Part shown: positions 9,136-15,951 of the stretch, one piece after another
How positions within the stretch are numbered: the first letter of the stretch is position 1
How the letters are laid out: each line of letters begins with the position of its first letter
From: Candidatus Hermodarchaeota archaeon
GTDB lineage: Archaea; Asgardarchaeota; Hermodarchaeia; Hermodarchaeales; Hermodarchaeaceae
NCBI GenBank assembly: GCA_016840065.1
Contig: JAEOTB010000078.1
Span: 1 to 40,799, forward strand
Direction of reading: 5' to 3'
Length of the DNA stretch: 40,799 bases
Translations under genes and position numbers: made by a program
Notes under the pieces: generated by a model
Seen by the model: only the letters and a program-made list of their open reading frames with translations
What the model was told of the DNA's origin: nothing
The model's database searches: none

Positions 9136-10389
9136 ATGGACGTAGTCCTAGTTCTGAGTTTTCACGGAGTATGCTGTGTAGACGAACACATGAACCTCAT
9201 CACCAAAGTCAAGTTTAGTGAAGAGGTTGACGAAGCTTCTGCAAGTATTGAAAGAATTCTTAATGGTGAAAGGGATCCTGTTCTAGAGGAATTCTTCACC
9301 CGATTAGCCGAGAAGAACATAACACGGCTATTAGTTGAGTCAAGGCACTTGGCTGAGGAAATGGCACGAGTCTATGGGATCAAAACTGTTCACTCAGAGG
9401 ACATTGTTTTATGGCGCAAAGTTAGAAGCAAGCTTCTATCACCACTTGTAACCTCTAAACATCGCCAGCTACTCAGAGAAATCGCCTTGGAAATTTCAAG
9501 AAGTGCAATCCGAGAAGCTTCAGAGCGAAAGGATCAGTTAATCATACAAGCAATGGGTACGTTAGACGAAATCGAGAGAACATTGAACCTCTTCATATCG
9601 AGGCTCCGCGAATATTATGGTCTGCACTTTCCTGAAGCTGCACAGCGTCTAGAAAACGCGCACAGTCTTGTACGACTTATAGTTGAAGGGGGACAACGCG
9701 CTTCTATCCGTGAGAATGCGGAATTAATGGCGACGCTACCGAAAACAACAAGAAAAACGCTTACAGCACAGCAATCAATGGGCGCTAAGATTGGTGCCTC
9801 AGATATAGCGATTATTCAGAGATTAGCACAACAGTACATCAACCTCCACAATTATAGAGAACAAATAGAAAAATACTTAGACAAAGCGATGCAAGAAGTA
9901 GCCATTAACCTTAGAGGCCTAATTGGCCCAATTTTAGGAGCTAGACTAATCAGTTCGGCGGGAAGTATTGAGAAACTCGCACGACTTCCAGCAAGCACGA
10001 TTCAAGTTCTTGGCGCAGAAAAAGCACTCTTTCGGGCACTAAAAACTGGAGCTCGCCCCCCCAAACATGGTGTCATCTTTCAGCATACCTTAATTCATTC
10101 TGCACCTTGGTGGCAACGAGGTAAAATCGCGAGAGTATTGGCAGGTAAAATTGCTATTGCAGCACGGATTGATTTCTACGGTGGACAGTATCTAGCAGAG
10201 GAACTGAAACATAGTGTCACTAAACGGATAGAGGAAATTAGGAGGAAATACCCAACAGGGCCAAAGGAAAGGAAGATTGAGGGGAAGCCTCACAGACAAC
10301 AACGGGCACCTTCTAGGAGGAAAAGATACTCTCAAAAGACTGGTCCCAAAAGACGTCCGGCACGAGAAAAGAGGAGGGCAGAACGTTGA
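9136..10389 (+). CDS. nop5: Box C/D RNP protein Nop5 (Nop56/58)
   Basis: DQLIIQA, RLREYYGLHFPE, LPASTIQVLGAEKALFRAL, PPKHGVIF, RGKIAR; basic tail; upstream of fibrillarin. Confidence 0.96.
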   Translation: MDVVLVLSFHGVCCVDEHMNLITKVKFSEEVDEASASIERILNGERDPVLEEFFTRLAEKNITRLLVESRHLAEEMARVYGIKTVHSEDIVLWRKVRSKLLSPLVTSKHRQLLREIALEISRSAIREASERKDQLIIQAMGTLDEIERTLNLFISRLREYYGLHFPEAAQRLENAHSLVRLIVEGGQRASIRENAELMATLPKTTRKTLTAQQSMGAKIGASDIAIIQRLAQQYINLHNYREQIEKYLDKAMQEVAINLRGLIGPILGARLISSAGSIEKLARLPASTIQVLGAEKALFRALKTGARPPKHGVIFQHTLIHSAPWWQRGKIARVLAGKIAIAARIDFYGGQYLAEELKHSVTKRIEEIRRKYPTGPKERKIEGKPHRQQRAPSRRKRYSQKTGPKRRPAREKRRAER

Positions 10390-14692: not shown

Positions 14693-15622
14693 TTATAGGG
14701 GGACTTCGAGTTCTAGTTTCTCCACTAGTTCTTTGTATCGATTACGAACAGTTACTTCTGTTACTCGCGCTACAGCTGCAACTTCGCGTTGTGTACGACG
14801 TGAGTTCTCAAGAACACTTGCTACATAGATAGCAGCAGCAGCCACCCCAGTTGGACCACGTCCACTTGTGAGCCCTTTGATTGCAGCCATTTTTAGGATT
14901 TTTACTGCGTGTGCTTGAACCTTACCGACGAGTTTGAGTTCGCTAACGAAGCGGGGAACATAGTCGATTGGCGAGGTGGGTGGAATTGACAGCTGAAGTT
15001 CACGAGCGATAAATCGATAGCTTCGACCGATTTCCTTCTTACCCACTCGTGATACTTCCGCGACTTCATCTAGAGTTCGGGGAATCCTAGATTGTCGGCA
15101 TGAAGCGTAAAGGGCTGCTGCAGCAACACCTTCAATTGATCGACCACGAATAAGACGCTGTTCTACTGCACGTCGATAGAGCATTGCTGCAATTTCACGA
15201 ACCGTTCTCGGAAGACCTAGGCTTGATGCCATACGATCAAGTTCGGATAAAGCATATGCAAGATTCCGCTCTGTCGCATCAGATACACGAATCCTACGTT
15301 GCCATTTACGAAGCCTGTAAATTTGGGCACGGCGTTTGGGGGCAAGGTCCTTTCCGTAGCTGTCACGGTTCCGCCAGTCAATCATTGTCGATAACCCCTT
15401 GTCATGAATTGTATATGTCAGGGGTGCGCCAACTCTAGCGCGTTTCTCTCGTTGCTCTTGATCAAAAGCCCGCCACTCAGGACCCTCATCGATGATGCGA
15501 TCTGTTAGGACTAACCCGCAGTTTCTGCAGACGATTTCAGCTCTCTGATAATCCTTTACTAACTTGTCATCGCCGCAGTCTGGGCAAAGCGATATTGTGG
15601 GAGCACTTACTTCTTTCGTCGT
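14693..15622 (-). CDS. tfb: Transcription initiation factor IIB (full length; start codon non-canonical or uncertain)
   Basis: The frame stays open for 79 codons above the ORF-track ATG (15385): [38 protein letters not shown]...GPEWRAFD...RARVGAP...HDKGLST. Two cyclin repeats follow ([29 protein letters not shown]). An in-frame TAA lies at 15625-15623. Confidence 0.95.
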
Positions 15623-15879
15623 TTACTTCTGCCTCCTCTGGACTTGGCCTTCGCCTGGAAAAGAGCCGACCCTGGAGGCAATGAATCCACAGTGATTTGT
15701 GACTCTGGTTTTATAGATGCAAATGGTCTACTAATAGGTCCGAAAATGTCTATTATAGTTCCAACTAGTTTCGATTTAGTTGTGTATAGCCGTGTGCCTA
15801 GGCGGATAGCTTGTTTTACCCGCGCAATAATATGACCTTGCGCAGAGAAATGTAAAACCGCGCCTATTTGAAGCAGCAT
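15607..15879 (-). CDS. gar1: H/ACA RNP protein Gar1
   Basis: [26 protein letters not shown] and a basic tail; the position upstream of tfb is typical. Confidence 0.9.
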
Positions 15880-15936
15880 ATCGACTCCTGGGAGGCGAAG
15901 ATCTGGTTGGGATAGAAGATTGGAACCGCACTGTCT

Positions 15937-15951
15937 CTTAAAAAGGTTTTC
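15937..15951 (-). promoter_or_regulatory. Putative BRE/TATA promoter of gar1-tfb
   Basis: Minus-strand GAAAACC-TTTTTAAG about 60 nt upstream of the gar1 ATG. Confidence 0.5.

Follow-up and report, generated by a model that had tools for sequence, protein, structure and literature searches.

A conserved ACG codon as the likely translation start of the gar1-linked transcription factor B gene in Hermodarchaeota

RESULTS

Organization of the gar1-tfb junction

The window analyzed here is the whole 40,799-nt stretch of contig JAEOTB010000078.1 from Candidatus Hermodarchaeota archaeon (GenBank assembly GCA_016840065.1), a MAG of 131 contigs that is 84% complete. On its minus strand, the gene for the H/ACA RNP protein Gar1 lies directly upstream of the gene for transcription factor B (TFB). 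The features of this junction are the following.

15938..15944, minus strand: TATA-like TTTTTAA box seen in the sequence, about 60 nt upstream of the gar1 start; TTTTTAAG is kept in relatives
15885..15889, minus strand: AGGAG Shine-Dalgarno sequence (SD) of gar1, 5 nt before the gar1 start codon
15607..15879, minus strand: gar1 (H/ACA RNP protein Gar1; PF04410), 90 codons with an ATG start and a TAA stop at 15609-15607
15632..15636, minus strand: GGAGG, SD for tfb, within Gly-Gly codons of gar1; AGGAGGC is invariant in 18 genomes
15620..15622, minus strand: ACG, the proposed start codon of tfb, present without exception in the Hermodarchaeota copies
15607..15622, minus strand: gar1/tfb overlap of 16 nt, in the phase of the common ATGA (-4) overlap
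15613..15619, minus strand: A_CGA_AAG heptamer in the gar1 frame, a candidate -1 slippery site present in the window
14693..15622, minus strand: tfb (transcription factor B; PF08271, and PF00382 twice), 309 codons plus a stop
15464..15586, minus strand: TFB zinc ribbon (residues 13 to 53), entirely upstream of the first canonical start codon
15383..15385, minus strand: first ATG of the tfb frame (codon 80), which follows the zinc ribbon and the B-reader

The gar1 product carries the Gar1/Naf1 RNA-binding barrel (PF04410; E value of 3e-9, 37 bits against a Pfam cutoff of 29.3). The TFB product combines a four-cysteine zinc ribbon at residues 13 to 53 (PF08271; E value of 2e-18) with two C-terminal cyclin-like TFIIB repeats (PF00382 in two stretches; E value of 2e-49), and both CxxC pairs are present in all copies. 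A Gar1 gene lies directly upstream of tfb in the window and in loci of other Hermodarchaeota, Atabeyarchaeia, Sifarchaeum/Borrarchaeum, Hadarchaeota, and others, which is the conserved neighborhood that marks the principal TFB of archaea. Elsewhere, the genome of the window carries at least four additional TFB paralogues, the gar1-linked copy being the conserved one. Its product is 98 to 99% identical in three genomes of the same genus, 90 to 93% identical in fifteen genomes of the sister genus, and still 75 to 80% identical to TFBs of other phyla.

Counted from the ACG at 15622, the tfb frame remains open to 14693. Reading along the minus strand, GGAGG (15636-15632) is followed by a 9-nt spacer with the in-frame TAA (15625-15623) at its end, directly upstream of the ACG (15622-15620), and then by a second ACG (15619-15617) and AAA GAA GTA AGT. 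The first ATG, GTG, or TTG of this frame is the ATG at 15385. In the gar1 frame, which is one base out of phase with tfb, the same bases read AAA CGA CGA AAG AAG TAA, and a C-to-T change at 15621 would create a tfb ATG and a gar1 TGA together. The initial annotation of this DNA had already described a tfb gene with no canonical start ahead of its zinc ribbon, a GGAGG 9 nt before the ACG at 15622, an overlap with gar1, and a single C>T that would give both codons. Re-reading the sequence, the frames, and the Pfam matches confirmed all of these factual statements.

Taken by itself, the GGAGG-N9-ACG motif does not exceed chance significantly within one window, where 2 matches were found and 0.56 expected. 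Its weight comes from the identical arrangement in 18 species-level genomes and further contigs, rather than from single-window statistics. By analogy with archaeal promoter architecture, the TTTTTAA box may serve as the promoter of a gar1-tfb operon. All copies have CCAGGAGTCGAT ahead of the gar1 start codon, and no TATA-like box was seen inside gar1 on inspection by eye.

Translation of the zinc-ribbon region

Codons 6 to 79 of tfb show a dN/dS of 0.02 within the sister genus and 0.06 between genera, comparable to that of the rest of the gene (0.01 within the genus). This strong purifying selection indicates that the zinc ribbon and the B-reader are translated in the tfb frame. Public gene calls for TFB begin further downstream: one version, 288 aa long, uses a GTG that relatives have at codon 22, and the other, of 277 aa, uses the ATG in C-M-N-C-G. 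Both versions split the four-cysteine zinc ribbon in two. If the true start were such a GTG or ATG inside or after the ribbon, with the upstream ribbon an untranslated remnant, these predictions would be matched, as would the position of the first canonical start in the window at codon 80. However, such a protein would retain only half of a four-cysteine ribbon whose CxxC pairs are intact in all copies, selection on codons 6 to 79 is as strong as that on the remainder, and codon 22 in the window is GTA, not GTG. A downstream start is hence extremely improbable.

Another 288-aa call, P0120, which belongs to a different lineage (L235:487-1467), was considered as a further case and rejected. At that locus, tfb possesses a regular ATG further upstream and shares about 70 nt with gar1, and the public call, which begins within the zinc ribbon, is simply mis-called. 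Since P0120 is mis-started despite its normal ATG, long gar1 overlaps alone can mislead gene callers.

Conservation of the ACG codon across Hermodarchaeota

None of the 18 species-level genomes that span the junction, which represent two genera, has a canonical start anywhere from the upstream in-frame stop to the first cysteine, and neither do further contigs of other assemblies (L117, L258/L259, and L260-264). Alignment of the gar1-tfb junctions from these related MAGs shows that the ACG is conserved in all Hermodarchaeota copies. It is also the only near-cognate codon that all copies have in common between the upstream stop and the zinc ribbon. All 18 genomes share the first ACG, the AGGAGGC, and a spacer of exactly 9 nt, whereas they differ in the sequence of the spacer and in both of its flanks (the end of gar1 and the N-terminal tail of TFB). 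Synonymous sites have diverged to a pS of 0.54 within the sister genus and are saturated between genera. In the genome of the window, the distance between GGAGG and start codons peaks at 7 to 10 nt (33, 36, 37, and 26 cases, respectively), with 9 nt as the mode.

Constraint from gar1 coding (Gly-Gly and Lys-Arg) could account for some of the conservation seen in GGAGGC and AAACGA, because each base of the overlap is nonsynonymous in one of the two frames. In genus 1, the TAA immediately precedes the ACG. Read-through of this TAA was considered and rejected, as the tfb frame upstream of it has no canonical start in genus 1 either.

The same ACG at the same spacing in 18 genomes and further contigs excludes several of the explanations that the initial annotation had put forward. 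One of these, an assembly or sequencing error in the MAG that hides a true ATG or has lost a G in TAAGTG(G)CT, which would restore a GTG at 15606, has only the prior expectation for MAGs in its favor. More than 20 independent assemblies, produced in different studies, agree at the junction, and L009 has TAATTG in place of the TAAGTG of the window and hence no GTG there, which leaves a negligible probability for such an error. Initiation at the ATA at 15595 was not borne out either, since the sister genus has CTC or CTT at this position.

Start codons of tfb in other Asgard classes and outgroups

Among approximately 185 TFB loci, a canonical start is absent only in a few groups, namely, Hermodarchaeota, Sifarchaeum/Borrarchaeum, the loci L035/L172/L177, and one Hadarchaeales contig. 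In Sifarchaeum marinoarchaea, Borrarchaeum, and a related metagenome contig (L051, L052, L053, and L119), no ATG, GTG, or TTG precedes the tfb zinc ribbon. The sequence GGAGG-9 nt-ATT CAC TTA TCG GAA is conserved in these loci, and the TFBs of Sifarchaeum and Borrarchaeum are 81 to 82% identical to that of the window. The tfb of Sifarchaeia and Borrarchaeum most likely starts at the ATT. In these loci, gar1 ends about 40 nt upstream, with a stop in the tfb frame in between.

The loci L035, L172, and L177, whose TFBs are 62 to 64% identical to that of the window, also have no canonical start and show a stop followed by ATT or ATT ATT and TCA AGT TGG. The Hadarchaeales locus (L070) has no in-frame canonical start and an ATG one frame off, and its missing start may be an assembly frameshift.

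The tfb genes of other outgroups begin with ATG, GTG, or TTG behind SDs located near the end of gar1, and Atabeyarchaeia show a TTGA overlap. This makes it plausible that the Hermodarchaeota junction, which looks like a former ATGA overlap, arose when one T-to-C change removed the gar1 stop and the tfb ATG at once. The N-terminal TFB tails cannot be aligned with those of outgroups, so that a position-exact ATG counterpart can be shown for rpo7 (see below) but not for tfb. For rpo7, gar1, and the XPB-like helicase gene of Hermodarchaeota, relatives do have a canonical codon at the homologous start position.

Assessment of a frameshifted Gar1-TFB fusion

A different route to the zinc ribbon, also raised in the initial annotation, would be a programmed -1 frameshift: ribosomes translating gar1 would slip at A_CGA_AAG (15619-15613), with the GGAGG that lies 13 nt ahead of it as the stimulator, and TFB would be made only as a Gar1-TFB fusion. 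The heptamer of the window is identical to the cdd site of Bacillus subtilis, gar1 and tfb stand in the required -1 relation, and the 10-nt run AAAGAAGTAA in the overlap is invariant in the 18 genomes. This last feature is, however, explicable by dual coding, and the run reads AAGGAAGTAA in a third Hermodarchaeota lineage, which is represented by two independent assemblies (L258/L259). There, the codons become CGA AGG AAG, a change that destroys A_AAG, is synonymous in tfb, and leaves GGAGG-9 nt-ACG in place. Moreover, L012 has CTA AAG, L008 and L009 are altered at the first base of the heptamer, and a 12-nt insert between the ACG and the heptamer in L009 moves the latter from 13 to 25 nt from the SD, with the SD-ACG distance unchanged.

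No downstream structure is supported by RNAalifold across the 18 junctions (consensus of -5.3 kcal/mol, with 1 covarying pair), and none of the approximately 185 TFB loci inspected contains an in-frame gar1-tfb fusion. In Sifarchaeum and Borrarchaeum, where tfb also lacks a canonical start, an intervening stop in the tfb frame and a gar1 that ends about 40 nt upstream make the frameshift route impossible. With the slippery site changed in L008, L009, L012, and L258/L259, and displaced from the SD in L009, a frameshifted fusion is disfavored and appears quite improbable.

Near-cognate start codons elsewhere in Hermodarchaeota

A genome census anchored on GGAGG returned 437 canonical starts and 90 noncanonical candidate positions. 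Near-cognate codons account for 28 candidates, against 10.8 expected, with CTG found 7 times (1.15 expected), ATT 6 times (2.3 expected), ATA 5 times (1.45 expected), and ACG 4 times (0.63 expected). The genome-wide enrichment of ACG is weak, as one of its four cases is tfb itself and one shares its SD with an ATT. The ACG candidates other than tfb failed as start codons: that of C60 has an ATG 15 codons downstream, that of C99 lies in low-complexity sequence, and that of C128 is the one whose SD is shared with ATT.

Near-cognate codons occupy the start positions of three further conserved genes. The first is rpo7/rpoE (SHS2_Rpb7-N plus S1; L199:301-939, plus strand, corresponding to G000 contig C81:5375-6013), which has a CTG at the Met1 position, 10 nt after GGAGG. 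At this position, CTG is found in the genome of the window, ATT in two congeners, and ATC in 14 of 14 sister-genus genomes, where outgroups have ATG-TAY-AAA. The SHS2 domain of Rpo7 begins at residue 10, and the first canonical start, codon 40, would delete most of it.

The second gene encodes an XPB/Rad25-like helicase (L201:104-1732, minus strand, corresponding to G000 contig C128:39026-40654), with an ATT 7 nt after GGAGG. In 15 Hermodarchaeota genomes, ATT, ATC, or ATA is present at one aligned position, 7 to 9 nt after GGAGG, and in three of them an in-frame TAG lies one codon upstream. The third is gar1 itself (window 15877-15879, minus strand; L007-L023), at whose single SD-defined start position the window has ATG, four genomes have TTG, and 13 sister-genus genomes have CTG. 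Gene callers stretch gar1 to an upstream ATG or GTG adjoining the TATA-like box, giving calls of 106 or 114 aa. Because start codons interchange at aligned positions in rpo7, the helicase gene, and gar1, the ribosomes of this lineage appear to start at SD-positioned codons with a single mismatch.

These genes also bear on C-to-U mRNA editing, the third mechanism offered by the initial annotation, in which the ACG would become AUG and the CGA of gar1 UGA. We know of no C-to-U editing of mRNA in archaea. A single C-to-U at 15621 would yield a perfect ATGA-type overlap, and the editing of ACG to AUG start codons is known in plant organelles (for example, PMC12548569). Yet editing cannot convert the ATT, ATC, ATA, and CTG starts of rpo7, gar1, and the helicase gene in the same lineage, so a second mechanism would still be needed. 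Editing at tfb is therefore very improbable.

Further candidate near-cognate starts behind GGAGG were observed on G000 contigs. These comprise an ATT before a signal-peptide-like N terminus (C24:1956), a CTG of a GNAT protein (C33:8677, minus strand), an ATT of an LRR protein (C56:25483), an ATA of a SAM methyltransferase whose Pfam match runs from residue 12 and whose first canonical start is codon 85 (C128:26398, minus strand), and an ATT/ATA of a protein without a Pfam family (C126:2822, minus strand). In the window, an ATA at 10326 (plus strand), 5 nt after GGAGG, opens a frame of 254 codons. The listed ORF begins at the TTG at 10386 (234 aa) and is possibly a further gene with a misassigned start.

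Proposed translation of tfb from ACG

Taken together, we consider it most likely, with a probability of roughly 0.7, that translation of the gar1-linked tfb in Hermodarchaeota begins at the ACG (15622-15620), directed by the SD and possibly coupled to gar1. ACG initiation had been the first option of the initial annotation, and it is favored by the invariant ACG and GGAGG distance of 9 nt, by the match of this distance to the modal spacing, and by the near-cognate starts of rpo7, gar1, and the XPB-like helicase gene. The case for SD-directed near-cognate initiation at tfb is one of comparative sequence evidence only.

In the proposed scheme, the GGAGG within the last gar1 codons would base-pair with the tail of the 16S rRNA, which would bring the ACG, 9 nt downstream, into the P site. 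The initiator tRNA would be accepted with one mismatch, the first residue would probably be Met, and the resulting TFB would have 12 residues before the first zinc-ribbon cysteine. Coupling is possible because gar1 ends 16 nt further on and both genes appear to share one promoter; ribosomes terminating there may reinitiate at the ACG. The ACG might serve to limit TFB output.

Searches with aragorn, with and without introns, and with Rfam RF00005 found 15 to 25 tRNAs in the 84%-complete MAG, none of which is an initiator and none of which combines a CGU anticodon with initiator features. One intron-containing aragorn call, tRNA-Stop(tta) at G000 contig C78:78976-79085, is absent from the Rfam tRNA hits and is probably mis-parsed or false. 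The 16S rRNA 3' tail was not found in the same assembly, and it is the spacing statistics only that point to an anti-SD.

A broader reading would hold that Hermodarchaeota, like other Asgard classes, have a relaxed, eukaryote-like start stringency on mRNAs led by an SD. Core transcription genes, listed as TFB (ACG), Rpo7 (CTG/AUU/AUC), the XPB-like helicase (AUH), and Gar1 (CUG), would then be deliberately throttled or co-regulated, and the ACG of tfb would be a fixed and selected dosage device by which the supply of the general transcription factor depends on translation of gar1, a gene of ribosome biogenesis. This wider scheme is speculative, and we consider it rather unlikely.

DISCUSSION

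Implications for start-codon rules and gene calling

The ACG of tfb is most likely one case of a lineage habit of near-miss start codons, and gene finders shorten the proteins concerned. If this is true, an entire Asgard class initiates its principal TFB at a codon that is not among the accepted initiators of prokaryotes, and the start-codon rules of the closest archaeal relatives of eukaryotes would be looser than the standard AUG, GUG, and UUG. This would bear on the origin of eukaryotic near-cognate initiation and of eIF1-type proofreading.

At the level of annotation, every public call of the gar1-linked Hermodarchaeota TFB is truncated within the zinc ribbon, and Rpo7, Gar1, and the XPB-like helicase are likewise mis-started in gene calls. 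Therefore, systematic N-terminal errors are to be expected in Asgard proteomes, domain inventories, and phylogenomic alignments. In addition, the gar1-tfb junction offers a compact construct, defined by its natural variants, that suits in vitro tests of archaeal start-codon selection and coupling.

Comparison with known systems

ACG is not on the initiator list of NCBI table 11 and, to our knowledge, ranks among the weakest near-cognates in bacteria. For archaeal initiation, a 2020 review names AUG, GUG, and UUG only (PMC7531240). Our literature searches found no published description of ACG starts in archaea or Asgard lineages.

The closest bacterial parallels are the SD-directed AUU starts of infC and pcnB in Escherichia coli. 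As in these genes, tfb presents a strong SD at normal spacing, a codon with a single mismatch, and conservation of this codon in a housekeeping gene. The efficiency of ATT in E. coli is about 0.3% of that of ATG, a value cited in PMC10666635. Unlike infC and pcnB, tfb has ACG as its codon, and its host is an archaeon with aIF1, aIF1A, and aIF2. Autoregulation of the infC type was considered and rejected: no such logic is evident at tfb, and the aIF1 gene (PF01253) of the genome of the window begins at an ATG, 6 nt after GAGGT.

For the frameshift alternative, the known counterpart is the -1 shift at A_CGA_AAG with an upstream SD in B. subtilis cdd (Mejlhede 1999, as cited in PMC5009743). The heptamer A_CGA_AAG shifts -1 in Bacillus, and IS1222 uses G_CGA_AAG (PMC5009743). 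Like cdd, the window has this very heptamer, preceded at a distance of 13 nt by an SD-like GGAGG, and two frames that stand in a -1 relation. Unlike in cdd, the heptamer and its distance from the SD are not conserved in the Hermodarchaeota relatives. Moreover, the cdd shift is incidental and occurs at a low level, whereas a shift at tfb would have to supply an essential factor.

Termination-reinitiation coupling at ATGA/GTGA (-4) overlaps has been described in Haloferax volcanii and E. coli, and overlaps can evolve when mutation turns a stop into a sense codon and translation runs on to the next stop (PMC10666635). The gar1-tfb pair resembles these overlaps in its unidirectional arrangement, its overlap phase, and the closeness of the upstream stop to the downstream start. 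It differs from them in that the overlap spans 16 nt instead of 4, the downstream start is noncanonical, and coupling is putative.

Finally, initiation at ACG and CUG is familiar from eukaryotic and viral genes, such as those for VP2 of AAV and C' of Sendai virus. As in these cases, it is the initiator tRNA that would decode the ACG of tfb, a low-efficiency event in the eukaryotic setting, where stringency is set by eIF1, the homologue of aIF1. Those starts depend on scanning and Kozak context and usually yield extra isoforms. At tfb, in contrast, the SD would position the ribosome, and the gene seems to have a single product, with the ACG as its sole start.
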